A DNA stretch of 62,330 nucleotides, counting the filler. It is 10 parts of 10 records of this genome, joined end to end, with 100 filler letters (N's around TTAATTAATTAA, not from the genome) between each part and the next. Parts side by side here need not be neighbours in the genome. Positions count along the whole stretch, not along the records: positions 1 to 9,269 come from SRR15195285_47; 9 more parts are not named here. One strand, written 5' to 3'. The position numbers were made by a program, and so were the translations under genes. The notes beneath the pieces are model-generated. The model saw nothing but the letters and a program-made list of their open reading frames with translations, was not told where the DNA came from and made no database searches. This document shows, piece by piece, positions 2-58,997 of the stretch; the first letter of the stretch is position 1, and each line of letters starts with the position of its first letter.

Positions 2-3000
2 TGCGTGCTGAGCACTGTTGGCGTTGTTTGTGGATACGCTCACCTGTACCAAGCTCAGGTCAACCAAGTTCACAGTCACGCCGGAGCCGTCTGACGTCCC
101 GTCTGCCCCGGATCCTTTGTTGCCGACAAGGTCAACTATGGTCGACACCTGCACTTCAATCATCTGACCGTTGCTTTCCGTTGCGGCACCCACGGTGAAT
201 GTAGCTGTGCAAGTAGTATCCGCGCAGTCTGCCTCCATCGCATGGCCAGCCAATTGCACCACAGGATCACGAATGCGCTCGGACGTGATCAGAGTTAGCG
301 TCACAATACTGCCGTCGAACGCTACGCTTGGATGATCTACTGCGCTGGACCTCAAACTTACAGAATCCAGAAGCGGAGCAATTGTATCAATCAAAACTGG
401 TGTGCCCGAAAACACAACACCCGTCGATGAGCCGTACCCACACACATCAAGGTCGATTGAATCTGTCGTCTCGCCATTGTAACACACACCACGAGCCGAT
501 GACCACCCACGGTCGCCGACGAGGCATCCACAGCCATCAAATACACGGCCAGCACAGTGACCGTCCGAACTGGGACTGAATTGAATCAAGCAGCTTTCAG
601 TGGTATCGTCACATGCGCAGTCGGTCCCTCGCATTGGTTCACAGGTCGATGCGGTGCAGTCAGGAGAACTACCATCGGCGTCGTGGGCCCGAGACACCAC
701 CGCTGCATTACCAGACATGTCGATGCAACGGACACTAAACCCCGCGAGGCCTTGCTCAAGGCCAACGGTTTTGCTAGTCTTGACCCACGATACTTCATCG
801 TAGCAGGATCGACGCGAGCCCCCACTTCGTAGTTCCCAATGCCACGCATGGCCGTTTGACCAGCCGTCATAAGTGCAGCCAGAGCAATCGGAGAGATGGT
901 CGCAAGCTTCCTGGCACTCATCAAGGGTCGGAAACCCTCGGCAGTGTTGAGAGCACCCCCGCAAGGTTGTATCTTCGTAAGGGCCTTTGTATTCGCGAAG
1001 TGTGGTAGAACCTTGCGCATTAATCTGAAACTGAGCAGTATACGCATGCGTGGTATCGCTGGACTGGACAGCTGGAACTGACACTCCATGCAGCACGACA
1101 TCACAGGCAGATCCAACGGCTTCTGACGACGAAAAAGACAGTGTGACGATGGATCCGCTCACACCCACAGCAGTGACATCTGTAGCCAGGCCGTCGATAG
1201 GCACAGCCGGTGTGGCGACTGTATCCGTCGTGTACGACAGGATGGTGATATCGGGAGGGGTGATGTCTACGTTAACGCTCGTCGAGCTGTCGAGGTCGGT
1301 GATAGATGCACCGATATTGCCGGCCTGGTCACTGTATCCACTGATTGAGAATGTGGCACTACCATCGTCATTCACAGCGTGTGATTGTCCGACTTGGATT
1401 GTGTACGAGCAAGCGCATGTCCAAGTGGTTTCATCACAGACGAGGTCCACGTGCTGCCCGAGAATTGTCGTCGTGCCGGTTTCAACAATTCGCTCTGATG
1501 TGAAGATCTGCAGCGTGATAGTATCTCCATACGTCGCGGGCGCTCCGGTCGAAGTCAATGCAATCGAAGTGACTCGTGGAGCCTCGGTGTCTATCACCAC
1601 GTCCCGACTGAGGTGGTAGGCATCTACCCCTGAATTGCCTAACACGTCGTGATAAGCGCCAAACCTCACAGCAACAATTCCATTCCGATCATCGCTATCA
1701 ACGATGTGCGACGAGTGACAGGTCGAACTTACGCTGCTGCTTATGCAACTAACTGGCAGCGAAGAAACTAGCGACGACTGGCTTGGCCCTCCAAGCAGCA
1801 GGGTCAGCGGTGCAATCTGTGCATACGAGGGCAGGCGTCCGCCATTCGGATCTCGATGGTACAGCATGTTGATGTCGTCCGCAGAAAGACCGCGCTTGAA
1901 GAAAGCGACTTCATCAAGTCTTCCATTGAAGTGCGTGTCCACCTTTCCGATATGATAATCATCAGCGATTTCAACCGAAGGAGCTGCCGTTGCAGGAAGT
2001 CCAACCAACTCACCGTTCTTTGCAAATAAGTACTGCCCGCCCGACTTCGTCCACGTAATGTAAACCCACTCGCGTACATTTTCCTGGAAAAAATCACGCA
2101 TTTCACCGTTGTATCGCTCCATGCCGTCGCTTGTGCAGCTGTCCCAAGATAAACCTCCTGTTGCTCTGTTGAAGAAAAGAGACGGCGATCTACCAGGACA
2201 TATCCCTGTTGTCTGACGTCCTACGATGCCCTGCATCACGCTGCCGCTGGTGAGGGAATCCACAGAAACCCACATGGAGACCGCAAAGTCAGCATCCGGA
2301 TCGCTCCATGGAGCCGGCACGGACAGATAGTCATCGGTGCCATCCAGTTCAACACTATCATTGTATGAGCCTGCCACCATGTTGTAATTGTCGTTCGTGA
2401 ACCCATGAGCCACGTTTGTTGGGCGGTAGCAAGCTTCACGGGCACATGGAGCGTCAAAGAGCGCGCAGTATCCGTGTGATTTGGCGCCTGTCCAGAGTCC
2501 AAATGATAAACAGCGCTCATCCTCAACGCAAGCCGCCTCACAAAGCTCCACAGTTTCTTTGCCATTGGGCCATTCTGAGATTCTATTGCCACAGTTACAG
2601 TTTCCATCCGCGGTCTGCTCAGATGTGACACCGGATAGACCGTGGGCGCTGCCGTACCCATCGTGGGAGGACAACACTCCTGTGGCTTGCCAGGAGTGTA
2701 CTGCTTTAGCAGATGAAAAATCATAGAATGCAGCGGGCCACACGCGCCCAACGAGAGACAATGGTGGAGAGATCACTATGCTGATTGCGATTTCATCGCC
2801 CGCTTTCACAGCGCGTCGACCAGAAGTGGAGGCCACATCGAGCGACACGACTGTAGGACCGCTCAAATCGATCGCAGCTGCGTCTTCCGTGCTGCCAAAG
2901 TCCGACCCTATATTTCCTGCCTCATCTTCGTATTCCGAAACTGACCAGGCGATCGGCCCCTCTTCGATGACCCCAGATCCAGTAGGAACCCACACGTGAT

Positions 3001-6000
3001 CGGAAGTGGGTCCCGAGCAACCACATATTTGGTTGTTCCAGTTCTGATTGCAACCGTTCTGACGCACGTCCTGCCTCGCATGAGCTCCATCCAGGTTGCA
3101 AGAGCTATCGGTGTTATCCTGTGCATGCATGCATAGGCGCCCTTGTGACTCACAAAATTCGTTGCAGGTCGTGCCTCGAGTATAGACGTGGGCATCGCAG
3201 ACTTCGGCTCTGCTGTGCTCTGAGAAACTGATGGTACTGTGCCATGCAGAGTCATCAATGCTGGGGCACAGCGAGCCGCCGAGTGTATCCAACTGATGGC
3301 ACGGATCACGGTGGTCGTCTTCTTCCACACCAAAGCCGAAGCCACCTCTCGACACATCCGGGTCCACAATGAGCACCGCATCGCAGGATAATCCAACACA
3401 TCTCGGACTGCATAAAACACCCGCGATTCGTACCAACGGCAGGCGTACAATTGGCTCTGAGATGGCGAATGCCAGGGTGACAGTAGCCCAGGGACCTGCA
3501 ACCGTGGTGCCATTGAGCAGAGGGCCAGCCAACACGTTGCCGGTGGCTGATAGCTCGGCTGCAGTGATCTGTGGAGCAGAGGAGTCCAGGAATGCAATTT
3601 CAGTCCCAGCGATCTCTGTTCCGTCATCGTCCTGCTCTCGCCACGCTTCCACGTTGAAGTCGACCCCTTGAGGTATCGCAACTGTGATCGTGACTGCTGG
3701 CACACACATGTGTGCAGCTGGCTGTGCTGTTGCTGCTGACATTGCGCCAATGGCTAGAGCTGTTCCTGTCAGCGCCGTCCACTCATTTCTATCCTGGTGG
3801 GCATGAGCAGCTGCAACGATGCATACAGCAGGGATTTTCCAGCTACTGGACGCTCCTGCTGCACCGCTTGCACACTCGTTCTCGACTGTCTGCAGGGCCA
3901 CATCTTGGAACTGGCTGAGCCCGTCGAAGGCACTGAAGAACACCAAGCCCTGGCTAGGTTTCGTGTCAACAACATCCAGCCTCAGATATTCGATGGGATC
4001 CGTTGCCTGCAGGCGCCTACGAGAGCCGCCATCGCGTGTGACCAGCAGCCATGCTTCTCCCTCTTGGCTCACAGTAACTCTCGCCTGATCGACGGGCAAA
4101 TCTGGGGCAACAACCACGTTGATATCTCCAAAATCATTGGCAATTCTCATTGTCACAGAGGCATCTGAGAGGTTCTCAAGATTTACGACACCGGTGAAAT
4201 TCCCTGCCAATCGTCTATCACAGAGCTCTTCTCGGGACGGGATGTCATATGCACAAGTGCGCAAGTCGGCATCTTCTGTCTGCTCACCAGGGCTGCAAAT
4301 TCCCAATTCAGACGACCACCCATACTGATGATCGTGGCGAGCATCATCTGACGCAGCGGCTAGTGTCATACACCCACATGCATCGTACACACGCCCTGCA
4401 CAGGCGACGCTTTCGCACTCCGAAGTCACACCGTTGCAAAAACAGTCCCTTGACCAATCAGCGAGGCACCATTGCGGCAGCTGTCGGCAGCCATGCACAC
4501 CACCGAGCGAATCGTCCGCCTGGTGCGCGTACCCGCCAGGACTGACTGTGATGCAGCTACCATCGGTGGTCGAGTCCACCATGTCCCCTGCATTGCCTGC
4601 TAGATCGACGAAAGACGCAATTTCGATTGGCAAGCACAGGCCTGTGCCTACAAGACCGTCGATGTCTGCTGCAGTGAGATTCCTAGAGTACGTGCACTGA
4701 TACCGGTCGGGCAAATCCACCCGGTTCGCAGGACATGAGAAGTAGCTGCTTCCCACCCTCGATACACTGCTTACCCTCGTCCACGACGCTCCCTCAGCTC
4801 CACATTCGGCTGGCAATTTTACGTCAAGCTCTTGCCATCCGTCACAGCAGTATTCGAAGCCCAAGCTCTCCCATTCGTAGTTGCCTGCTTCCTCGATCCT
4901 TTCCTCAAAATAGATCCATCCCCAGACGTCTCTCGACCAGGAAGTGCAACCGCCTGGACTCTGCGGCTCACCAGCCTTACGGAAGCAGCTTACACCTCCG
5001 TGGCCCCAGTCGGCATGAAAACGAAACCTGTACGTCCCAGTGTGGCCCGACAGCACCTGGAACGGCATCTGATAATGAAATGCGATGTTGCGGACGTCCT
5101 CCCCGCACTGCGCGTAGTTGCCCCAGTCTCGGCCATAGTCAAGGGTGCGGCTGCAATATCCTGCGCCACCAGGGTCGGCCGCATTGAACGCAGCCAACGC
5201 GTCCTCGTAGTCATCGGCAGGATCGCTGTCGCCCTTTAGGCTGAAACCGCCCACACGTGGCCGTGTCTCGTACTGGATATCTTGGAAGATTATTGCGGTC
5301 TCACCTGCAGTCACGCTTACAGGCTCACACGATCCTGCAGTATCCCCGCCGCTGATACGAACGTCGACAGGCTCCGTCAGCGTCACACACATACTTGGGG
5401 CAACCAACTCCGTCTCATCCGCTCCTGCCTCTGGATCTGATTGACAGAGGCCGTTGCCAGGGCAATCCTCGTCTGTCGAGCAGGGAGACCCGACCGACAA
5501 AACACAGGACTCCGAATATAGCGGCTCACTAAACACCACTGTGACTGTTGCGGGGGTGCCGACGACTGCTGCCCCATCACCAGTGGCGTACACATTCCAG
5601 CGACAGCGGCTCTCCCACCCAGAAACGAAATCCAAGCCGTCCACGCAGATGCAATCGTTGCTGCGTCCGCCGTCACTGGTGTACAAGCCGTCTGAGGAAA
5701 CCCAGCCCATTGGATTGCCATAGCTAAATGCATCGTGTCCGAGCTCTGCGCATATTGCAGAGCAGTCTTCGATTGTCGGTGTCTGGTCCTCTTTGTACTG
5801 CGTGCCCGTGTACCGACCAGGAGTACACTCGTGTACGACGCTCCAGTCACCTGGATTGTATGGGGCTGAGACTTCTACAGAAATCACTGAGGGGCTCTCA
5901 AGCTCAACGGCGACAGCCCTGTCCGAGAACCTCTCAACTTTTCCTGGGTTCCGCCCAGCATCCTCGTATCCTGAGACAACCACATCCACCAACCCAACTG

Positions 6001-8982
6001 CATCACCTGGTAGGACGGTGTGCCTCGCTTCACACTCCATCCCACTGCAAGTAACCGTGGCACTCCCCCCAGCAAGCGTCACAGTAGGGAAGACAGTCAG
6101 CTGCTCAGAGGACTCAAACGTTAGGACAAGCACAGACCCTACGCCCGCCACAGTCGTGTAGACGGGCCGTCCATCGTTGCAGTCCCGATCGGTCCGCTCA
6201 GCCTGCAGGAGCATGTTCGATAGCACAGGCGGACTTATGTCGAAGCAGCGTTCCGGTCGGGCGCCCGGTTGCTCGCCCGACAGGCACGTTTTGCCAGACG
6301 GGCACTCTCCACAGTCCAGTGGATTGCCACACCCATCTGTCTGCTCACCACATACGAGTGGCTGAGAGTCGCACGTCCAGGGTTCGCATACACAAGCGTT
6401 GGCCTCGCATCGCTGTGAGCCAGGGCAGGGTCCACAATCCAGGGTTCCTCCACAATTGTCGTCCATGGCGCCACATGCGAGTCCGCAGGTCGTTGCTGTC
6501 AGCGGTGTGCAGGCTTCTGTGCACCCCACATCTGTGCTTGCAGTCCCAGGAGACGATTCTAGTATAGTAAAGCCTGGGTTGCACTCGGAATGCGGAGTAC
6601 AGCTCGTGGCAGTGCTACTGTCGCTAGCCTGAAAATGCCCGTCTTCGCAGGCGCTGCACTGACGGTCATCTGCCGAGGTGCAGTCCGCCGATGCGTACTG
6701 CCCAGCGCCACAAGTGCGACAAGAAGCACACTGGCGCCCGAGAAAATCGGCCTCCGATTGGAATTGACCAGTGGCACAGGTCGCACACTCGGTGTCGCTG
6801 GTAGCTGTTGCGGCACGTACTACGTATTGTCCTCTGGCACACGAAGACGGCGTTGAGCACTCTGAGCCAGAAAAGGCGTCAGATTCTTGGTGCTGGCCAG
6901 GGTCACAGGCTTCGCACACCGAGTCTCTTTCAGCTGTACACTGCGCTGTCATCTTCGTGCCAGCAGGACAAGCGCTACGGCACACACTGCAGGTTGCACT
7001 GTCCTCAGTGCTGAACTTTCCATTCGGGCAGTCGCTGCAAGTTGCATCCTCGTGATGCGAGCAGGCAGACGCGAGCACCTTGCCTGCGCCGCACGGAGTG
7101 CAAGCGGTGCATGACGCTGCGCCCTCAGCTGCCACAGCCTGCGTCTGGAACTTCCCTGCGGGGCAGTCTTGGCAGCGTGCGTCGGATGTGGCTGTGCACG
7201 GCTGGAGCAGAAACTGACCAGCTTCACAAATGCTGCAAGTCTGACACCCGGCGCCCGTAAACGCCTCCTCGAGTTGAAACTTGCCCACAGGGCAAGCCTC
7301 GCAGGTACTTTGCGTGCCGCCTGCCGCACTGCAGAAGCACATCCGTCGTGCCCCGTGGGAAGCAGCATCACAGTTGAAGCCTCGTGGATCCCTGGTGCCT
7401 TCGGGATGGTAACAGGAGCAAGCGAAGTCGTTGCTGTCTGAGCATGCAAGGTACGGCGCCCAGTCGGCTGTGCTGGGAGAGGAGCGACCACTGTCGCATT
7501 CGACTGCGTTGAATCGATCTCCCCCGCCCTCGAACCGCCAGTTTCTATCGCCGCCTATCTCCATGCGAATATCCGGCGTACGTCCGTGGTCGTAATCTCT
7601 GGGCGTGGTAGCACGGAGGTAGTAGCGATGCGCGCCTTTGTTCCTGCCCTGCCGAGACGCTGCTGGGGAAAGGAGCTGGAGCAGCCCTTCCTCTGAGTTC
7701 ATATCGGCCTGGTTCGCGTGAGTAGCAGCCGGCGAGCAGGTCATGCCGTAGTGACCACAGGTGGTGGCGCAGGACTCGCCCAGTCCACCGAGAATCCAGC
7801 CACCGTCAGTGCCGTGCGCTGGCAGGGCGCTGTCGGAGGAGTAGGTACACGCATAGTCTTGGAGCCCGTCGACAAAAGCGTAGAATGTACCGTGTCCATT
7901 GCCACCATTGCCCATGATTTCGATCGTTCCCGCTGCGAAAGTTCGCGAAAACACGCGCCCTGGGCTCCGCGCAGAGTGGTGGTAATTTCCGTACTGCCCT
8001 CTGAAGGTGGTGCCCTCCATCGCAGTTTCATGGACCCACTGCGAGGTAGGGGCCAGCAGCCATCTGGGGTAGTGGTCATCGTAGCCCCAGACATCGAGAT
8101 AAATCGTCACCGGAACATCTACGGTGAGTGTCCACATCACGCTGTCCGCTGGCGTGTTCTTGTCGCTGTTCGGAGGCTGCACAAAGTGCATGCTCGTGCC
8201 CGCAAACGAGCCCATGCTGGTGAAATGGTAGCTGCGGTCGGTAAAGGGTCGCTCGCGAAGAGCTGGCGGAGCTGAGAGCATTTTGATATCGCGTCCGCTG
8301 CTGGCCTGCGCCGTCACGCACGTCTGGCCTGAAGTGCTGTCTGGCGAGTGCACCAAGAAAGTTCCCGGTCCGCAGCCGCGCGACAGGACCCCGCCTGCCG
8401 CTGCTGCTGCCGGGCCCACTTTCCCGCCCAGCCGACACTGCCGGGCCTCGTCGACGCGGAAGCCCGCCGTGCTGCCGCCCTCGTAGTTGATGGACACGTC
8501 GCGTGTCTGGTGGTCGTACTTGCACTCGTCCGGCGCGCCGGTGCACGCGCCGCCGCTACCGAAGCTCGGGCACTTGTTGATCCCCCAGTACACCGCGTCG
8601 TTGTCGCCCGGCGGCACGCCGGCCTCGCGCGTGAGGCAGCCGCACGCGTCAAAGACGCGGCCACGTGCGCACTTGAAGGAGTGGCAGAAGTGGGTGGTGC
8701 TCGGGCAGTAGCAGTCCACGTCCCAGTCTGGCACACCGCCACTGCCGTACCTGCAGCGTCCAGTCAAACACCCATTGCCACGTACCTCAGCAGGCTGGGA
8801 GCGAGCGAGAGAGGGAGGGAGGGAGGGAGACGGAGAGGGGGATCGCACATGATCGCTGCGTTGGAGGCCGCCCGGTCCACCAGCAGGCTGAGCAAGAGCG
8901 CAGCAGCCAGTGGCAGTGCAGCAGGTTGCCGTCTGCGTGGTCTGCAGCAGCTGCAGCCGGTGGCTCCAGCCCGCAAGGCCAT
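2..8982 (-). CDS. Giant secreted mosaic protein, >2,960 aa, 3'-truncated by the window edge. Order: signal peptide, Cys module, bacterial-type beta domain, TNFR-like Cys repeats, myxobacterial-type Cys repeats, then >=7 Ig-like repeats carrying inserted CCXG-like, LamG and PAN-like domains
   Basis: Exon 1 8982-8849 (MALRAG...LAAALLLSLLVDRAASNAAI), intron 8848-8751 (GTGCG...TTTGAC...CTGCAG), exon 2 8750-2. Manual translation showed no stop, and the ORF track lists no ORF in this minus frame over 8.7 kb, as expected for an edge-truncated open frame. Motifs read: DTEAPRVTSIALTS..GDTITLQIFTSE..YSDQAGN; SLGFEYCCDG; LDGTDDYLSVP..FNGRLDEVAFFKRGLS; C..CP.GKFQ repeats. Confidence 0.88.
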
Positions 8983-9269
8983 GGTGCCTCCCGCCCTGGC
9001 CCCCTCCCTGGCTGCCCGCCTGGCTGCGGTTGGCTGGCTCAGGCGTCAGCGCGCTCCGTAGTGCAGTGCTGTGTAGTGCCGTCCTGTCCTGTCGGCACGC
9101 GGGGAAGCTGCGCCGCCGCGCGCGCACACCAGCTGGTGCGCATATCCGATATCGGTGAGGCGTACCCTGCATTCGAATGTTCTGGTGTAGGATCCTAGAG
9201 GATTATCGCTAATTCTCGAATCGTACTGTAGGATCCTACGTACGGCAACCGCGCTCGAAATTGTACGGC

Positions 9270-9369
9270 NNNNNNNNNNNNNNNNNNNNNNNNNNNNNNN
9301 NNNNNNNNNNNNNTTAATTAATTAANNNNNNNNNNNNNNNNNNNNNNNNNNNNNNNNNNNNNNNNNNNN
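9270..9369. other. Artificial contig spacer
   Basis: 44 N + TTAATTAATTAA (stops in all six frames) + 44 N; identical at nine positions. Confidence 0.98.
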
Positions 9370-9388: not shown

Positions 9389-12355
9389 TTACTGTGCTAA
9401 GAAAAGCGACTTCAGCACCTCGGACGCGGGCTTGTTCTGGGGTGTGTAGCTGTCGTCCGAGCTGCCGCCCGCGTCCGGATCCGTCCGCCAGAGCCACAAA
9501 TACACCCCGTTGAACCAATCGTGCGGGTACAGCGCGTTTATCCTACGTGCATCAAGCGCGGGATTTTGATAATTGCAGGCCAAAGCTCACAGCGTCTGAC
9601 TCAAATCTAAAATGGTAGCAGATTCTACTCCATGCAACAGAGTGGTGCCCACGCACAGCCCCTCATACGCGCGCGCCTGGGCCAGTAGGTTCACGCAATT
9701 TGGCGTCGAGCTGCAATCGACCGGGTCTAGCTCGACATCGTTCAGTCCACGAATCCAGGCATAATTACGACTCTGGTAGCCCACCTCCGTGCACGTGACT
9801 GTCTTGCCTGTGATCTTCGTAATGTTCTCCAGTTTCTTGACAGTCGGTTGCCATCCCGCAACGATCTCCTCCGCGCTTGCAACCGACCAAAAGTGTGAAA
9901 GTGCGTTCAGGTCTGTGTAGATGGGCCAGTCTGCATACGCAAATCCGGATAGCGTGTCAGCAGCCCCGTCGACAGCTCAAGTCCAGGTGCGAGACGCACA
10001 ACAGTCCAAACCAATGAAATCGAGCTCATCGATCCAAGGGATACCATTCCTGTCCATGTCACTGAAGAAGGGATTTCCGTTGAACGCCACGGAAACGTTG
10101 CCACTGTAAGTTGTGCGCACTCGTCTTATCAAGCTGCGCCAAGAGGCCTCATTATTCGCGTTTGTGAGCATGGTGTGCAGCTCGTGGCCGACGTGGAACG
10201 CGTCTACGCCAGTCTCCTCTGCAAGCTTTGCATAGTCGATAATTATGGATCCGTATGCATTAAACCACTCTTTGATCTGCGCGGCACTCCAACCACTTCC
10301 CCACGTTCCTGTCCTCGACACACTCGCATACATGAATCGAGTCAACGGAAGCACAGCAGGCATACCATCAGTCATTCTCACCTCTCCCAGCTCCACCGCC
10401 AGCCAGACTTTTGTCTTTCAACGTTTTCCCGGAAGAGGCGTTCCACCATGGCAACATTGAAAAGTCAGGGTCGAACATCGGGGACAGCGAGGTTTTCATG
10501 CCAAGACGCTTCGCAGCAGCAATACCCACTCTGAGCTCATCGTCGGTATCAGTGGCGAGAGCATTAGGCAGTTTTGTCTGCTGCCCTCGGTACATTGTGA
10601 TCGAGTTCGTCTGCTTCCAGTCTGTCGGGAAAAACCAAGTTGGAATAAACTCCACGCTGTTGATACCATGGGACTTAGCGCTAGCAAGAGAAGCCTCGGC
10701 AGCGGCGGAGCTCAGGCGGGAAGAGTTGCGCGGGTCTTCAAAACTGGTCCATTCACCGCTGCCGACGACGATGCCGTTTTCTTTGGACGGCCACGGGCCA
10801 CCATTCAGCGACACGTGGCTGCGGTGCGTGGCACGCTTGCCTGCGTACGCTGCTGCATTAGGCGCGGCCAGGATTGTCCCCTGGTGCTGTGCGAATCTCT
10901 TCATCTCGTTGGCGGCCGGTTTGCCTTGAGGCGTGAATGACATGTCGTTGACTCCGCCAGAGGACGGATCGGACCGCCACATCCACCACAAAACACTGAT
11001 TGCATCACAACAAACTGTTCAGGAACTTTCGGGCCGGGAACTGTTCTGACAAACCTAGCTTGTGCGAAATGGAAGTATTGTTCTGGTTTCTCACCCAGCA
11101 AACCAGCTGTCCTCGCGGTCGGTTGCTGATTCAAACGCTTGATAAAAGGCCTCGTAGGCTAGCCGCTGGTCTTCCATGCTGTAGCACTTCATGTAGACGC
11201 TGCAATCGCCAGGGTTGAATCTCGGAGAGCCAGCGGGAGAGAAATACGACCGGGGTCGTGACTGGAAGCCAAGTTCCGTAGCCAAGACTGGCTTACCGAG
11301 AGTTGTCGAAATGTTTTTAAGCCAAACAATGTAGCCAGACCATGCTGAGGCGAGCGTCGCGAGCGTCGGTGGCTCTTGTGCGGGAAGCGGCAAAGCGCCG
11401 TACTCGCGCAAGCCGTTGTACATGTCGAACCCCAGAATGTCGACCGCATCGCTCCAGGGGATGACGATATTGGCGTTCGCCGCAACGGCCAGCTTGCCGT
11501 GATACACTGCTCGCACCTGTGTGGTGAGCTTGCGCCAGCGGCCGGCATTCGTCTTGTGCAGCATGGCCGCCGAGAGCTCTGCAGCGACGATCAGGACCTC
11601 AGCTCCGTGCTTCTCTGCGAGCGCCGCGTTGGCCAGCATCATTGATGAATACGAGGCGAACCAACTGTCCCACTGCCGCTCAGTGAAGAACCTGCCGATG
11701 GACCCTCGTCCTTGCTTCGGAAGGTCGCCTGAATCGTGGCAGTGAGCAGGCCGTGGAGCCTCTGGGTCAGGCTTGCCGCTGCGCCAAAGCAAGCACTCGG
11801 CTCCCGGATAACCTGCCCGCAACACACCGGGTAGCGCGTAGTTTGGGTCGAGCAGTGGTCCTAGGATCACCTTTGCTCCAAGCGACCGAGTCAGCTCTAT
11901 TGTATGCCCAATATGTGCATCTGACTCTGTCGCGAAAGGCCCAGCGCTGGAGCTGTTCTTGTTGCGATAAACCACTGTGCTGTTCGCACCATCCGTGTAC
12001 CAGGTTGGGATCAGACGGATCGTGCTCGCACCGCTTACAATGGCGGCACGCAGTGACGCATCAGCGGGTGCGCTGCCGAGCGGGGCATCGACACTGGACC
12101 ACTCGCCACCGCCAAACACGACGCCGTGGTACCTGCTCCAGGGAATAACGCAGGACCGTGACGGAGCAGCGTGCAGTGGGTCACGCAATTACCAGGCACA
12201 CCTCGCTCGTGATTGAAGTGGTTGAGAGAGTGCGTTGGGTGGAGTGCGTACGTCCAGGGTGGCGCAGCAGCTGATACACTGCGTAACGGCGGCGGTAGCA
12301 GTAGCAGCAGCAGCAGCACTGCACCAAGCAGTGTCGTCGGGGCCAGCATCCGCAT
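9389..12355 (-). CDS. Secreted glycoside hydrolase with two tandem GH113-like (clan GH-A TIM barrel) domains, ~830 aa, 6 exons
   Basis: Exons 12355-12252, 12132-11095, 10995-10382, 10308-10000, 9930-9657, 9542-9389, joined by GT-AG introns in consistent phase. Leu-rich signal peptide. Each domain shows WF.SY/AY...A.LAE..G, acid/base Glu (AAEL / GHEL), D..G.D.Y, nucleophile TELGFQS / TEVGYQS and W.WR.DP..GG..D.S.TPQ.KPA. Confidence 0.85.
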
Positions 12356-12420: not shown

Positions 12421-12520
12421 NNNNNNNNNNNNNNNNNNNNNNNNNNNNNNNNNNNNNNNNNNNNTTAATTAATTAANNNNNNNNNNNNNNNNNNNNNNNN
12501 NNNNNNNNNNNNNNNNNNNN
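12421..12520. other. Artificial contig spacer
   Basis: 44 N + TTAATTAATTAA + 44 N. Confidence 0.98.
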
Positions 12521-17078: not shown

Positions 17079-17149
17079 GAGCTCGAGCTCGAGCTCGAGC
17101 TAGCTCACGGGCAGGTGGGGCAGGTAGCAGGTAGCAGGTAGCAGGTAGC
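17079..17149. repeat. Short tandem repeats (GAGCTC)n and (GCAGGTA)n at contig end
   Basis: GAGCTC x3 and GCAGGTA x4 read directly. Confidence 0.8.
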
Positions 17150-17249
17150 NNNNNNNNNNNNNNNNNNNNNNNNNNNNNNNNNNNNNNNNNNNNTTAATTA
17201 ATTAANNNNNNNNNNNNNNNNNNNNNNNNNNNNNNNNNNNNNNNNNNNN
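17150..17249. other. Artificial contig spacer
   Basis: 44 N + TTAATTAATTAA + 44 N. Confidence 0.98.
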
Positions 17250-26503: not shown

Positions 26504-26603
26504 NNNNNNNNNNNNNNNNNNNNNNNNNNNNNNNNNNNNNNNNNNNNTTAATTAATTAANNNNNNNNNNNNNNNNNNNNNNNNNNNNNNNNNNNNNNNNN
26601 NNN
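26504..26603. other. Artificial contig spacer
   Basis: 44 N + TTAATTAATTAA + 44 N. Confidence 0.98.
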
Positions 26604-26817: not shown

Positions 26818-29712
26818 TCAGCATAGAAATGCTTCAGTATATGGCCGCATGCTGCAGCATAGCAGCGGAGCGCGATGGCAGGGCGTCGGTTCGTGGATTG
26901 TATAGCGCACCGTCGAGAGAAAGGTGTGAACGAGTATCGCTCCCTTCCCCGTGTTTTTATGCGCAATCCATGCTAAAATTCCGGTCGACTCCGCTTCTCG
27001 CTCCAGCATCCGTTCCGCTACGATCTTACTGAACTCCTCACGGCGCGGCTGCATGGTAAGCCAGTAGGCAGCATGCAGCCGTGCAAGATTGTACACCGAG
27101 ATAGAGACGGATACCGAGGCGATGAAAACGATGATGAGGGACCAAGCAAGTCTCCCTTGTTCTGGATTAAGCTCAGGATCAAAGGCTCCAATCGATGTGT
27201 GATTGTCCGCCTGCAGGCAGATGCGAGAACAATCAACCATGGCGACAAGAGAGACTTACACAACCGAATTGCGCGAGCGCATGCAAGGCAAGCAGGGTGC
27301 CTGTGTCTCTCAGTGGTGGCCTGCCGACGCACCCATATCTCCTCCGCATCTTCTAGATCAAGCAGTGCCTTCTTGACGAGCACAGCGGCGTCCGCCACCA
27401 GCACCACTGCATACATGAGCCACAGCAAAAGCTGAAACCCGAACAGGGCCAGAAACTTTGCTGTCCCAAACCTACGGCCGAGGCGAGGCAAAGAAAAACG
27501 ATGAATTGTCAGGCAGCATAAAGTCTGACCGGTTTGTCATAGGTGGAATCGTACCTTGAGATCAAAGTCAAATCCGCGTGCGAGAAATAGAGCATATAGT
27601 TGTTTGCTCTTCGCTTTTGTGTGGCCAAATCCTCTGATGTCGCGTCATCCTCCTCTTCGCCAGCCTCTGCTGCACCCTCCGCCTCCTCTGTCAGTGGCGT
27701 GGTCCCACCACCTCGTCGACCCCAGCGCCCACCACCGCGACGCTTGGTCTTTTTCTTGCCAGGAGAAGGGGCCGCGTGGGTAAAAGCTGAGATTGGGGTG
27801 TGTGATATTGGGTCGTAGAGGTCGAGGGTATCCCCATTTTCGCGGCGCTGACGTAGGAACCTTCTGATCTTATCAGCAGTAGTGACGTCCTGAAGCTGGA
27901 ACCACGACAACCACAATGCGGCGAACAAGGTGCAAACGGCTGGGACAAAGCCAAGAAAACCCAGCCTTAGTCTCCACCTGATGTTGTTAATGTCAGATTC
28001 ACTGACAGTCGCAGACATTGATCCATGCCCCGGGTCACCATTTGTGCATTCAGCAGAGAGAAAAGCGATAGGAAATATCCGGCCGCAGAAGGTGATCCAA
28101 AGATGGATCAATTTCGAGATAGCCTGGTACGTCCCTTCTTGTCTGGCACCACAGATCAGCTCCCCATAATCCACGACGTCGGAGAGCAGCGCAGGCTTCA
28201 GTGACTGAATACCTCCCCATGCCAACCCAAGCAAGGCCTGCAGGACGGACAGAGTGCGGTACGCAGAAGTTAGAAGAAGAGTCATCATTTGACAGGTGAT
28301 CTGGTGGCCGTTTGTTGGAAGCCAGCAGTAGCAAAGTAGAGACAGTCAAGCAGAGCAGACAAACTCGCGTGCATATGCATGCAACGTACCGTGAAGGCAA
28401 GGAATACTCCGCGGCTGTTACCCTCGTCACCTGCAAAGAATCCGAACAGGCTGAAGAAAAACGCAAGGACCACAAAACCCCGTAGCGTGGAAAGCTTGTT
28501 GAAACGCCGCGCGAGCAGCGGCGCCAGCAGCCCCGCGGAGATCATAGCGACAGCAGCGTAAACAACCATCGCGTAGGAGGCCCACAGCAACGCCTGCCCT
28601 TGCTCGCAGCCTTCGTTGGTGTACCGATTTGTGTCGTATTTCTGCTGTTCCTCGCTGCATTCGAGTAGGTAGACATATACGGCCGGCACGATCGCCATGA
28701 GCTCTGCAATGAGGTTCAAAGGCGCAGTGGCATACATGTATATCTTCCACTGCGAATTCCGCATGATCCATCGAAGACCCGGCACGAAGGATGTGCGCGT
28801 GCGACGGAACTGCTTACCCGGCAGCGCATCAGATGGTGTCTCGGACGTGGCCAGCCACGCAGCGATGTGCGTGACGAGGAGCACCACTGCAAGTGTAGTG
28901 CCAATCACAATGCGCGGCATGCCACGAGGAATTTCACTGTTCGATTGGAAGCCAATCATTGCCGCGGCTACTGAAGCGCAGCCAGCGCCGGCGATTCCAG
29001 CTGAAGTCTGCGCTGCGAAAAGCTTCGTGCGCACGTCAGGATGATGCAAGGCCGACATCTCAGTGCCCAGCGCGTCCAGCATCGTTGTGGCGATCTCCAC
29101 GAACACCATGAGCAGCCCGAATACGATCGCGTAAAATAGCGAATTGCGCTCCAGCAAGGCGGGCGGGGAGACCAGCAGGAACGCTGCCGCCGCAGTCAGC
29201 GGCGCGAGGAAGGCCAGGACTGGCCGACGCCGACCGAAGCGTGTGCGAATGCCGTCGCCGAAGTGGGCGGCGGCGAGCTGTGTGTAGCTAGCAACGATGA
29301 GGGACCCAAACGCACTCATGGTCACGTAGCCCGCATCACGCCGCCCATTGTCTAAGTTGTCCGACTGGCTGTGTAGCTGGGTCACTGCGTGTGTTGCCGC
29401 GAATGCCTGCACACCTCGCAGCGCAAATGCAGGCAACGCGTAGCCCACCATGACGGCCCATCCCAGTGAGCCCTGCTCAGCGCTGCGGAAGGGCAGGGGC
29501 GAAACATCGCCACCACCTCCCGGATGCGCCTGCGGATAGCCCTGGATGTTCGCACTGCGGACTGACCGCCCGGAGATTTCGCCCGGGGCCGCGAACGGGT
29601 CAGTAAATCCCGGCGCCCTCCTCGCCGCGGCAGCCTGCTGCAGCAGCGGCCCGGCGCCCTCCTCCACCAGCCCTCTGCCGCCGAAGCCACCCGCCCGACC
29701 GCGCCCTGCCAT
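26818..29712 (-). CDS. MFS transporter, GPH/MelB-MFSD2-like family, with C-terminal extension (3' end uncertain)
   Basis: FGDGIRTRFGRRRPVL and ALLSDVVDYGELICGARQEGTY are GPH-family motifs; ~12 hydrophobic segments. Introns 28389-28238, 27554-27472, 27332-27211. Confidence 0.8.
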
Positions 29713-29752
29713 ATCCGCCCGTCAGCGCGGACCAGTCAACTGTATGTGTACA

Positions 29753-29852
29753 NNNNNNNNNNNNNNNNNNNNNNNNNNNNNNNNNNNNNNNNNNNNTTAA
29801 TTAATTAANNNNNNNNNNNNNNNNNNNNNNNNNNNNNNNNNNNNNNNNNNNN
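29753..29852. other. Artificial contig spacer
   Basis: 44 N + TTAATTAATTAA + 44 N. Confidence 0.98.
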
Positions 29853-33212: not shown

Positions 33213-33312
33213 NNNNNNNNNNNNNNNNNNNNNNNNNNNNNNNNNNNNNNNNNNNNTTAATTAATTAANNNNNNNNNNNNNNNNNNNNNNNNNNNNNNNN
33301 NNNNNNNNNNNN
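33213..33312. other. Artificial contig spacer
   Basis: 44 N + TTAATTAATTAA + 44 N. Confidence 0.98.
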
Positions 33313-38769: not shown

Positions 38770-38869
38770 NNNNNNNNNNNNNNNNNNNNNNNNNNNNNNN
38801 NNNNNNNNNNNNNTTAATTAATTAANNNNNNNNNNNNNNNNNNNNNNNNNNNNNNNNNNNNNNNNNNNN
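38770..38869. other. Artificial contig spacer
   Basis: 44 N + TTAATTAATTAA + 44 N. Confidence 0.98.
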
Positions 38870-38988
38870 GGGGGGGGGGGGGGGGGGGGGGGACTTGGTT
38901 TGTGGGAGTGTCAGTGGCTTGTATGGCGTGAGCGAGAGCTGTTTGGCTCGCTTGTAGGGAAGCTGCAGGAGCTGCGGGAGATCTCTCG

Positions 38989-46658: not shown

Positions 46659-46758
46659 NNNNNNNNNNNNNNNNNNNNNNNNNNNNNNNNNNNNNNNNNN
46701 NNTTAATTAATTAANNNNNNNNNNNNNNNNNNNNNNNNNNNNNNNNNNNNNNNNNNNN
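46659..46758. other. Artificial contig spacer
   Basis: 44 N + TTAATTAATTAA + 44 N. Confidence 0.98.
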
Positions 46759-55000: not shown

Positions 55001-55100
55001 NNNNNNNNNNNNNNNNNNNNNNNNNNNNNNNNNNNNNNNNNNNNTTAATTAATTAANNNNNNNNNNNNNNNNNNNNNNNNNNNNNNNNNNNNNNNNNNNN
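55001..55100. other. Artificial contig spacer
   Basis: 44 N + TTAATTAATTAA + 44 N. Confidence 0.98.
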
Positions 55101-57471: not shown

Positions 57472-58997
57472 CTAGTTTCCAGCTGCAATTTTTGCAACCG
57501 ACTCGAATTTGCTGAGCATCTCTTCAGACTCAGAAAGAGTGGTATTGTAGGGAGGCAGCACTCTGACTACCTGGTCGCCAGAGCCAACCGTCAGCACCCC
57601 AAGCTCGTGCAGCTTGCTGACAAACTGCGCCGATGGAGAGGCAGCTTCGTTTGAGAAACCTGGGATCTGATCTTTCGGTTGGAGGACGAGCCCTCTCATC
57701 AAACCCAAACCACGTTGATCTGCAATCACAGATGGATAAGCCGTTTGGAGGGCAGTGAAGCCCTCAGAAATCCGATCTCCCACCGCGCGAATGTTGGCCT
57801 CCAGACCATCGCGATGGACGATATCAATAATCTTGTGTCCCACAGCACATGCCATCGCGTTGCCGCCGTAGGTTGTCCCATGCATCCCGGCAGTCAGCAA
57901 GCCTGCATGTTTGTCAGCCACCCAGAAACCACCGATAGGTAGTCCACCACCGAGTGACTTGGCCATTGACACAGCATCTGGTTGAAAAGCTGTTGCTGTC
58001 GCCGCCTCGCCTGTGGCTTCTTCCAGGATCGCCTGGTAAGACTGGAATCGACCGGACCGGAAATGGCCGCACTGCACAGCGTCGAAAAGCAGAAGGAGCC
58101 CGTTGTCATCACAAAGCTTGCGAAGACCGAGTAAGTAGTCTACGCTGGCAGGCATGATGCCACCCTCGCCCTGTATGCCTTCAATCATTATGGCTGCAGT
58201 CTGGTGTGGCACCGCAGCAACAAGCCCAACACGCAGAGTCAGTCCTGCGACACGTAGTCGGTGGTGGGTGAAGGGAGCCAGACGTGCTGCACTATGCGCA
58301 CCTGTGGACCAATTGCGTCGGCGGCCGCTTGCAGATCGTTGTACGGCACGTGAGCGTACCCTGGAACCATAGGTCCAAACCCAGCCTTGATCTTATCCTG
58401 GCCTGTGGCCGCGATGCAGGCGACGGTGCGTCCGTGGAAAGAGTTGTTGGCTGTGATGACTTCGTAGCGAGCGGTGGCTAGGTCTGTGTCGGTGCCGTCA
58501 CGCTGGCCCCACGCACGCGCCAGTTTGAAGAGACCCTCGTTCGCTTCGGCACCGCTGTTGCAGAAGAACACTTTGCCGCCCGCACCTTCCCGCCCGTCGG
58601 CGAACAACTCTGTGAGCGCATCCGCGAGCATCCCCTGCTCCTCGGTGTAGTAGAGGTTTGAGCAGTGAATGAGCTTCGACGCCTGGCGCTGTATCACTTC
58701 CACCAGCTCAGGGTGGCTGTGACCCAGCGCGTTGACAGCGATACCCCCGCCCATGTCTAAGTAGCGCTTCCCGTCCACGTCCCACACCTCCCTGCCGGCT
58801 CCATGCGACAGGACGATATCGTACCGGCCGTACGTCTTCAGCACCGACGTATCGAATTTCTCCAGCGTGGCCCCGCGGCTGACGCCAGCGACGCTGCTTG
58901 CGCACTGGCTGCGGGTGCCCTGGCGCGTGGCCAGCTGCCGTGCAGCAGAAGCAGCAGCAGCAGAAGCGGCAGCGCGACCCCGCAGCGCGTGCGCCAT
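57472..58997 (-). CDS. argD: Acetylornithine aminotransferase (class III PLP), ~474 aa, with mitochondrial-type presequence
   Basis: YLDMGGGIAVNALGHSHP, FFCNSGAEANE, SFHGRT, IEGIQGEGG, MAKSLGGG (PLP Lys), HGTTYGGN. Arg/Ala/Ser-rich N-terminus. Intron 58301-58201. Confidence 0.93.

Follow-up and report, generated by a model that had tools for sequence, protein, structure and literature searches.

Split domains with an immunoglobulin (Ig)-like fold are known from the RTX adhesins of Gram-negative bacteria, where they project ligand-binding domains off the axis, with Aeromonas hydrophila AhLap, Vibrio cholerae FrhA and Marinomonas MpIBP as examples in the sections consulted of PMC12077191 (which references Graham et al. 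2024, Proteins 92:933; related accounts are PMC10865825 and bioRxiv 10.1101/2025.09.30.679566). The same sections describe deeper nesting, with a vWFA domain set into a beta-roll and an insert within that vWFA domain (PMC12077191). On the eukaryotic side, the literature matches concern only bacterial-like surface proteins of trichomonads, and the giant ciliary coat glycoprotein FMG1B of Chlamydomonas combines Ig-like repeats with a Cys-rich domain (PMC12021028, sections consulted). Here we describe a giant minus-strand gene in a stretch of 62,330 nucleotides (the window) made of ten contigs joined end to end. On the balance of the evidence we favor reading it as a 3'-truncated nuclear gene of a eukaryotic microbe, coding for a giant (>2,960 residues), secreted or surface-bound, disulfide-rich and fibrillar-adhesin-like protein in which several Ig-like repeats are split around whole foreign modules. 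The evidence is purely computational and concerns an incomplete gene that stands alone on a 9.3-kb contig.

Like the RTX adhesins, as far as the sections consulted describe them, the window protein has a long rod of Ig-like extenders, some interrupted by a budding (for example lectin-like) ligand-binding domain, and it carries several different cargo domains on one chain; three of its repeats are compact and four are split, and we infer that the split halves close. It differs from them in its probably eukaryotic rather than Gram-negative host, to which codon usage, intron signals and Cys content point; in a signal-peptide-like leader as opposed to type I secretion; in its high Cys content (5.5%); in its cargo of PAN-like, LamG, CCXG-like and novel Cys modules; in a different Ig repeat family, near Big_12 and mostly outside Pfam; and in a repeat (repeat 2) with three inserts in three loops. 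RTX adhesins have a C-terminal beta-roll of RTX nonapeptides and a type I secretion signal; no RTX/HemolysinCabind match occurs in the available 3057 residues, the C-terminus lying beyond the contig end. RTX adhesins begin with an N-terminal retention module and have no signal peptide; the window protein instead begins with a signal-peptide-like exon and Cys-rich modules. Because of this signal-peptide-type N-terminus, the lack of RTX repeats in the part present, the other repeat family and the probably eukaryotic host, we regard it, by analogy, as built like the RTX split-domain adhesins but not a member of that group. The first-pass annotation of this DNA, made from the letters alone, had called the locus a candidate for an undescribed system, which is overstated, since Ig-like split domains have already been characterized in RTX adhesins (PMC12077191, sections consulted); it had also named a characterized family of the same architecture as counting against its proposal, and here the design is indeed known while the protein itself falls outside the family. 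What seems new is an apparent eukaryotic version of the design on a prokaryote-type repeat. No paper on split Ig domains in a eukaryotic adhesin was found in the open-access literature and bioRxiv, where matches to the combined terms concern bacteria. FMG1B resembles the window protein as a giant protist surface glycoprotein of chained Ig-like repeats with a Cys-rich domain, but has no detectable sequence kinship with it (PDB 9gos is ranked 15 by Foldseek, E 3.5e-4, TM 0.09 by query), and the sections consulted do not mention nested inserts (PMC12021028).

The minus frame is free of stops over positions 2..9202 (3067 codons) and runs off the left window edge; its first ATG, at 9172, gives the 3057 residues by which we number the protein. 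The open reading frame (ORF) has a GC content of about 57%, GC values of 54-60% fall inside the range of the other contigs, and a 9.2-kb open frame of this composition cannot be due to chance. The gene is real but incomplete, its 3' end being cut by the window edge. The frame had been described beforehand as open from 8750 to the edge, which is correct and even understates the stop-to-stop span, and as hidden from the ORF track, which is an artefact: ORFs that run off the source are omitted from the listing by default. The stored gene model (P0002) extends 22 residues beyond the window edge and then ends; it starts at a GTG read as M. Among 5.8 billion clusters the sole close relative is a collinear ortholog, P0003, which is 83% identical and carries a eukprot handle; in a search of residues 1861-3057 against 1.84 billion representatives, the next best match was 32% identical.

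To locate the repeats we used two hidden Markov model (HMM) profiles. The seed profile, built from the three compact repeats of the window, recovered the half matches; the independent profile was built from 287 full repeats of other, Cys-poor proteins, drawn from the 764 matches at E <= 1e-3 in the search just described, with the window's own repeats left out. The independent profile finds repeats 1, 5 and 7 whole and repeats 2, 3, 4 and 6 as pieces flanking inserts, in complementary stretches of the profile (Table 1). Among 201 shuffled or reversed decoys, 17 reach -0.3 bits, one reaches 4.5 and none reaches 5.2. The full-length alignment of repeats 5 and 7 identifies the window repeat as the prokaryote-type Ig-like repeat of 105 residues, whereas the similarity to Big_12 (PF19078; 21.3 bits against a cut-off of 27, E 3.2e-4, residues 2985-3024 only) does not amount to membership.

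Unforced MAFFT alignments with 30 three-repeat stretches of prokaryote-type proteins give the same picture. In the alignment of repeats 4 and 6 (A2), one contiguous prokaryote-type repeat spans both halves of each, and 31 of 31 rows agree at the D of the D..GN motif; in that of repeats 2 and 3 (A3), one contiguous repeat covers the pieces of each, and all 30 prokaryote-type rows align the pieces of repeat 2, namely strand A (residues 1088-1102), strand B with the SE motif (1198-1220), the next strands (1270-1288) and the last part (1494-1543). The outer boundaries, D..GN...D followed by ..P.l..v, are retained on both sides of every split repeat. By strand order in the structure predictions described below, the fold is opened after strands 1, 2 and 4 in repeat 2, after strand 2 in repeat 4 and after strand 5 in repeat 6; according to the profile, repeat 3 is opened after strand 5. 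Larger mixed alignments intended for folding (A1 and further designs) were rejected, as MAFFT smeared the tandem repeats over the inserts or mispaired the N-part of repeat 3 with the C-part of repeat 4 and the N-part of repeat 1 with the C-part of repeat 2. Seven Ig-like repeats and the start of an eighth had been proposed from the letters, with repeats 1, 5 and 7 compact and the other four interrupted at different loops; the profile, the alignments and the conserved in-frame inserts bear this out, with coordinates that agree within a few residues.

The inserts are coding sequence and not introns. Compared with P0003 they are 80-95% identical, next to 71-94% for the Ig pieces. Their only gapped residues are two in the insert of repeat 3, and a gap in any insert or Ig piece spans two residues at most. 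Being in frame and as conserved as the scaffold, they are coding, since such conservation is not to be expected of introns that happen to be read through; in-frame stops and intronic inserts, which the first-pass annotation had listed as fatal to its reading, are thus not what is found.

AlphaFold2 was run on residues 2099-2840 (mean predicted local distance difference test score, pLDDT, 58.8) and 1088-2103 (mean 49.2), and confidence was read as means of 10-residue blocks together with strand lists. Blocks with Ig pieces mostly average 72-95 and are called as beta-strands despite the 80-315 insert residues between them; the low ones, at 53-62, are the start of the C-part of repeat 4, a block inside the N-part of repeat 6 and the start of its C-part. 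In repeat 2 the blocks that hold the four pieces score 72-95, the strands come as one, one, two and then the rest, and strand A, seven residues long, is called as a beta-strand in blocks of 87 and 81. The insert of repeat 4 is preceded by two strands and followed by five, that of repeat 6 is preceded by five and followed by two, and the compact repeat 5 has about seven in all. Because DSSP calls only bonded strands, the isolated short pieces must be paired with distant pieces in the model. The inserts average below 50 in both models, because only one homologue covered them in the three-repeat-row alignments. Among PDB entries, Foldseek ranks titin tandems of three Ig domains highest (E 2.6e-5, probability 1.00). 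A complex prediction from the N- and C-pieces of repeat 4 scored 0.00; the supplied alignments were not used in it, and the partner's own fold was uncertain. Upstream of repeat 3, at 3587-3691 (residues 1828-1862), two strands reach pLDDT 71-87 even though the alignment covers this stretch with no sequence but the ortholog. They may dock on repeat 3 as additional strands or form the end of the domain at 1641-1860.

The modules held by the split repeats are diverse. The clearest is the Laminin_G_3/ConA-like domain in the insert of repeat 4, which passes its Pfam cut-off over the whole model (Table 1). The inserts of repeats 2, 4 and 6 have a common motif, T-x-x-x-C-x-x-x-C, and two of the three give PAN matches, all below cut-off (PAN/apple families PF00024 and PF14295): PAN_4 at 17.6 bits (cut-off 27, E 0.004) in repeat 4 and PAN_1 at E 0.22 in repeat 6, with another PAN_4 match in the protein at E 1. 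We therefore call these modules PAN-like only; relatives of the repeat 4 insert (P0010, P0014) carry PAN domains elsewhere in the chain. The third insert of repeat 2 may share at most a module with the PEP_CTERM_CCXG family, its score being far below that required for membership. The Cys-rich insert of repeat 3 has 30 stand-alone relatives, among them P0037 (with SUEL lectin and dockerin) and P0030 (with EF-hands); an Atlas search with it gave leads below 0.9 only, in eukaryotic clusters for which Ciliophora is named for one member and Haptophyta for three. A homology search for shorter relatives of this insert returned two ENA proteins only, and one for shorter relatives of residues 976-3057 returned none at E <= 0.001 among the 8000 candidates scored.

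Outside the rod repeats, a Cys module of about 90 residues (C..C...C....CA.GRV[FY]D.CGC...) is present in three copies, one N-terminal, one behind repeat 2 and one behind repeat 6, each of them at the boundary of an Ig block. The six TNFR-type stretches are well above cut-off, and the whole protein, compared by sequence with the PDB, returns TNF-receptor chains only (best E 2.8e-9). The Cys module, regions 231-614 and 1641-1860 and segment 891-975 match no Pfam family; for region 231-614 neither a credible Pfam match (one spurious match, 13.5 bits, E 0.069) nor a usable Atlas match was obtained, and Pfam searches with 15 separate segments yielded nothing beyond faint similarities to PAN and small knottins, each of them under its cut-off. 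A candidate kinship of residues 445-622 with the insert of repeat 3 was dropped, as sequence comparison did not support it.

The relatives of the repeat justify the earlier statement that it is typical of giant prokaryotic surface proteins. The repeat-rich matches (P0004, P0006, P0086 and others), giant surface proteins of a kind found in marine archaea and bacteria, marine Bacteroidota included, are nearly Cys-free arrays of 10-25 uninterrupted tandem copies, whose unit of about 105 residues aligns full length (1-108) to repeats 5 and 7 at 30-35% identity and shares the motifs ..P.l..v.i.S.n, TL.F..SE.i..P.vtiaG and D.AGN.g with the window. Most have no Pfam match over the repeat, while some carry Big_12, Big_13, Laminin_G_3 (as the window protein does) or type IX secretion system (T9SS) sorting domains, in which several of them end; in contrast to the window protein, their other domains lie at the array ends and not inside the repeats, and a simple pairing rule finds no split N/C pairs among these arrays. 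With three of the repeat proteins as query we found 30 loci: 11 in a Nitrosopumilus sp. metagenome-assembled genome (MAG), five in Cyclobacteriaceae, four in Roseivirga/Roseivirgaceae, three in Patescibacteria-type MAGs, two in Ekhidna and one each in Reichenbachiella, a Bacteroidetes bacterium, Natronospirillum, Spirochaetia and Neomarinimicrobiota. On the Nitrosopumilus MAG chromosome (1.94 Mb), at least 11 loci (L001-L008, L010, L017, L029) code for giant Ig-repeat proteins, a large share of a small genome. A PDB search with the repeat-protein profile found no solved structure related by sequence.

A relative with different inserts, such as the first-pass annotation had proposed to look for, was met once. 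P0060, from the 50%-identity representative library, has 2048 residues, 3.2% Cys and about 33% identity over the Ig repeats, and one of its repeats is split into an N-part (1411-1464) and a C-part (1952-1998), E ~4e-12 each, around a 487-residue insert with an RCC1-type propeller; a second (329-354 / 712-764) is probably split around a C-type lectin. P0060 and the window protein are both Cys-rich, share this Ig repeat type, in which a Cys-x(4-5)-Cys pair precedes strand 5 in each protein, and have split repeats; P0060 differs in carrying an RCC1 propeller, a C-type lectin and He_PIG as cargo and in having no TNFR-type repeats.

At the 5' end, the main frame upstream of 8750 has no signal peptide; an ATG at 8982 in another frame (caccATGg) opens an Arg-rich start followed by a stretch of 15 hydrophobic residues. 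Two candidate introns, of 98 and 35 nt, share one acceptor and both bring the main frame back at 8750 (Table 1). For comparison, another contig holds a 152-nt phase-0 intron (minus strand, 28238-28389, GTACGT...CTGCAG) that links the halves of an MFS_2 transporter gene (ORFs 28288-29721 and 27512-28345) and is confirmed by frame arithmetic. Near 58200-58300, a class-III aminotransferase gene is probably interrupted by an intron some 100 nt long, whose donor is GTGCGC. Of the two candidates, the 98-nt version fits the comparison introns best. The signal-peptide exon announced earlier therefore takes the form of a signal-peptide-like leader in another frame, joined through a plausible intron.

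The host is probably eukaryotic, in keeping with the earlier suggestion. In relative synonymous codon usage, the giant ORF and a pool of eight ORFs from the other contigs, five of these ORFs having eukaryote-typical Pfam domains, correlate at r = 0.88; the genes of those contigs correlate pairwise at 0.50-0.79, and the giant ORF read out of frame gives 0.58-0.59. Cys makes up 5.5% of the window protein. Of 31 Ig-rich relatives, counted without P0060, the ortholog P0003 and the two entries of the window itself (P0001 and P0002), 30 have 0-0.6% Cys and one, P0051, has 1.1%. Together with the intron signals, the TNFR-type repeats and the eukprot handle of P0003, codon usage and Cys content favor a eukaryotic origin; we infer both this host and secretion.

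The protein would begin with a signal-peptide-like leader, continue with a Cys-rich head made of a novel Cys module, domains of no recognized family and six TNFR-type repeats, and then run on as a rod. This rod would comprise eight or more Ig-like repeats, whose type is known elsewhere from the giant surface proteins of archaea and bacteria. Three of them, repeats 1, 5 and 7, would be plain extender domains; in repeats 2, 3, 4 and 6 the chain would leave the Ig fold at a loop, build one or more modules and return to finish the fold. The cargo would then comprise three PAN/apple-like modules, a ConA-like LamG domain, a CCXG-like module and a Cys-rich module, held sideways by the rod, and through them the cell could attach to sugar or protein ligands, be it on prey, on other cells or on surfaces.

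Several points weigh against this interpretation. The N-side pieces of repeat 2 are not found by the HMM and are placed by MAFFT alone, and the C-part of repeat 6 (E 0.17) is not significant by the HMM alone. The exact insertion point in repeat 3 is unsettled: the HMM profile and the protein's own paralogous repeats (Cys-x4-Cys pattern) place the strand at 1925-1937, whereas A3 aligned residues 1973-1987, inside the insert, to a repeat strand that was modeled confidently. Closure of the split halves into one beta-sandwich is read from sequence, pLDDT values and strand lists rather than from coordinates; the confident pieces are partly a consequence of input alignments that lay one repeat over both halves, and the insert folds themselves are of low confidence, with pLDDT below 50. 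The similarities to PAN, CCXG and Big_12 are weak, all lying under curated cut-offs, and the intron and signal peptide are putative, being candidates from sequence features. The giant gene is alone on its contig and tied to the eukaryotic genes of the window merely by glue. Some of these points would also suit a plain beads-on-a-string mosaic, whose half repeats are decayed remnants or short linkers with nothing nested: closure is read from confidence values and strand lists, the models were guided by one-repeat alignments, and some pieces are weak or missing by HMM (E 0.17 in repeat 6, 3e-3 to 5e-3 in repeat 4, the N-side of repeat 2). Yet the pieces complement one another and follow in order along the profile, where they hardly overlap and leave hardly anything out, and those of 13-40 residues (strand A of repeat 2, the N-part of repeat 4, the C-part of repeat 6) lack the length to fold by themselves; compared with P0003 these short pieces are 85-94% conserved, and they are modeled as strands, with block pLDDT of 81-94 for the first two and 53-88 for the third. 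Repeat-boundary motifs are kept on both outer sides of the split repeats, and the same design has been solved experimentally in RTX adhesins (PMC12077191, sections consulted). We therefore consider a plain mosaic unlikely; nesting appears well supported by the sequence and consistent with the models.

The identity of the host and the role of the protein can be read in other ways as well. A prokaryotic contaminant of a eukaryotic assembly, encoding an ordinary prokaryotic fibrillar adhesin, would account for the prokaryotic type of the Ig repeat, the frame unbroken over 9.2 kb, the prokaryote-style GTG start of P0002, a contig with no other gene that is merely glued to eukaryotic ones, and the weak match to the bacterial PEP-CTERM CCXG family. 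This is nonetheless improbable, because codon usage fits the genes of the other contigs as well as those fit each other, the candidate leader exon lies in another frame behind intron signals like those of the confirmed intron elsewhere in the window, the Cys content exceeds that of the Ig-rich relatives, six TNFR-type repeats score above cut-off, and the ortholog has a eukprot handle; moreover, prokaryote-type proteins among the 1.84 billion representatives reach at most ~35% identity, over the Ig repeats only. Giant viruses carry large repeat proteins and bacterial-like genes, and the contig is short and isolated, so a gene from a giant virus or other mobile element in the sample, rather than from a nuclear genome, deserves mention; we hold it to be very improbable, as codon usage equals that of nuclear-type genes, the GC content of 54-60% is within the range of the other contigs and a candidate intron of spliceosomal type is present. 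With the architecture as proposed, the role might still be structural, in a cell coat, scale, wall or extracellular matrix, or that of a signaling receptor. LamG, PAN and TNFR-type domains are also present in matrix and receptor proteins, and a C-terminus beyond the contig could hold a membrane anchor or cytoplasmic tail. A giant protist coat protein with Ig-like repeats and a Cys-rich domain exists in FMG1B (PMC12021028, sections consulted). The findings here suit a coat and an adhesin alike, but if RTX adhesins are taken as the analogy (PMC12077191, sections consulted), lectin-type modules standing out from a rod agree best with ligand binding. We hold a structural or receptor role to be less likely; adhesion or recognition is what the analogy suggests.

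Table 1. Features of the giant gene and its protein, and the spacers of the window. E values and profile positions of Ig-like repeats refer to the independent profile.
Feature	Position	Strand	Basis and remarks
Putative exon 1	8849..8982	-	start caccATGg, Arg-rich n-region, 15-residue hydrophobic core AALPLAAALLLSLLV; frame differs from main ORF
Putative intron, 98 nt	8751..8848	-	GTGCGA donor, pyrimidine-rich interior, CTGCAG acceptor
Alternative putative intron, 35 nt	8751..8785	-	GTACGT donor at 8785, same CTGCAG acceptor ending at 8751
Main open exon	2..8750	-	2916 codons; cut by window edge
Cys-rich module, copy 1	8483..8749	-	contains C..GRVFDACGC; blastp E 5e-13 against copy 2; no Pfam family
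N-terminal region, no recognized family	7331..8482 (residues 231-614)	-	80-88% identical to P0003
TNFR/NGFR-type Cys-rich repeats, six stretches	6503..7330	-	PF00020, 84.4 bits (cut-off 29.4), E 7e-24
Second Cys-rich segment	6248..6502 (residues 891-975)	-	CG...D.CGG.LDCG.CP twice; no Pfam family
Ig-like repeat 1, compact	5897..6247	-	E 3.4e-16, positions 23-96
Ig-like repeat 2, split: four pieces, three inserts	4538..5896	-	N-part not found; C-part 77-107, E 4e-7; MAFFT; models
Repeat 2 insert, PAN-like	5588-5857	-	T-x-x-x-C-x-x-x-C motif; no Pfam PAN match
Repeat 2 insert, small Cys-rich loop	5378-5506	-	
Repeat 2 insert, CCXG-like module	4709-5287	-	PEP_CTERM_CCXG (NF038118), 23.7 bits (cut-off 90), E 3.3e-5, residues 1315-1449
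Cys-rich module, copy 2	4253..4537	-	E 2e-14 against copy 3
Beta-rich region, no Pfam family	3593..4252 (residues 1641-1860)	-	low model confidence except 1828-1862
Ig-like repeat 3, split	2873..3592	-	N-part 22-82, E 2.6e-5; C-part 74-105, E 1.4e-4
Repeat 3 insert, Cys-rich, ~130 residues	2966-3361	-	30 stand-alone relatives, up to 65% identity
Ig-like repeat 4, split after strand B	1601..2872	-	N-part 3-43, E 5e-3; C-part 59-96, E 3e-3
Repeat 4 insert, 314 residues	1811-2752	-	PAN-like module and Laminin_G_3/ConA-like domain
Laminin_G_3/ConA-like domain in repeat 4 insert	1868-2344 (residues 2277-2435)	-	PF13385, 46.1 bits (cut-off 27.6), E 7.4e-12, positions 1-151/151
Ig-like repeat 5, compact	1265..1600	-	E 2e-20, positions 1-108; pLDDT 76-95
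Ig-like repeat 6, split between strands 5 and 6	668..1264	-	N-part 13-72, E 9e-6; C-part 70-98, E 0.17 (weak)
Repeat 6 insert, PAN-like	770-1006	-	all prokaryote-type rows align over both flanking parts
Cys-rich module, copy 3	398..667	-	E 2e-14 against copy 2
Ig-like repeat 7, compact	68..397	-	E 5.5e-26, positions 1-108; Big_12 E 3.2e-4, below cut-off
Ig-like repeat 8, start only	2..67	-	cut by window edge; same site in P0003 at positions 10-37, E 6e-6
Spacers, nine	9270-9369, 12421-12520, 17150-17249, 26504-26603, 29753-29852, 33213-33312, 38770-38869, 46659-46758, 55001-55100		N44-TTAATTAATTAA-N44

The ten contigs of the window are linked by nine spacers of the form N44-TTAATTAATTAA-N44, which we take to be the usual six-frame-stop linker for gluing contigs. 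Gene order and neighborhood across the spacers are therefore meaningless, and the giant gene, as the sole gene of its contig (1..9269), has no neighbors here. A Pfam match was obtained for 16 of the 21 window ORFs scanned, and the other contigs hold eukaryote-typical genes, namely SART-1, GDA1/CD39, LCAT with C2, and a cNMP-binding protein with EF-hands. A minus-strand ORF at 11094-12188, alone on a short contig, matches the GH113 glycoside hydrolases (E 4e-22). One contig begins with a run of about 23 G (38870-38892) and another ends in a GCAGGTA tandem repeat (17120-17149); both resemble artefacts of contig ends or simple repeats where an assembly breaks off.

Going beyond the split-repeat surface protein favored above, we tentatively suggest that a marine eukaryotic microbe took up the archaeal or bacterial repeat, added disulfides and made of it a combinatorial display rod, into which eukaryote-type modules were inserted repeatedly, in different loops of different repeats. 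Such a eukaryotic family of split-domain receptors or adhesins might have arisen independently of the RTX adhesins or by transfer of the whole design, and it could underlie the recognition of prey or partners. If the split-repeat reading holds, the split-domain adhesin design, recognized only recently in RTX adhesins, would not be confined to Gram-negative bacteria, and the gene would be a clear case of domain-level borrowing between the domains of life. Pfam largely misses the repeat itself, and no structure related to it by sequence has been solved, a gap worth filling. Interrupted Ig repeats would then be a simple guide to the ligand-binding parts of giant unannotated protist surface proteins, and the LamG, PAN-like and CCXG-like modules would be concrete candidates for attachment and prey recognition in uncultured marine protists.

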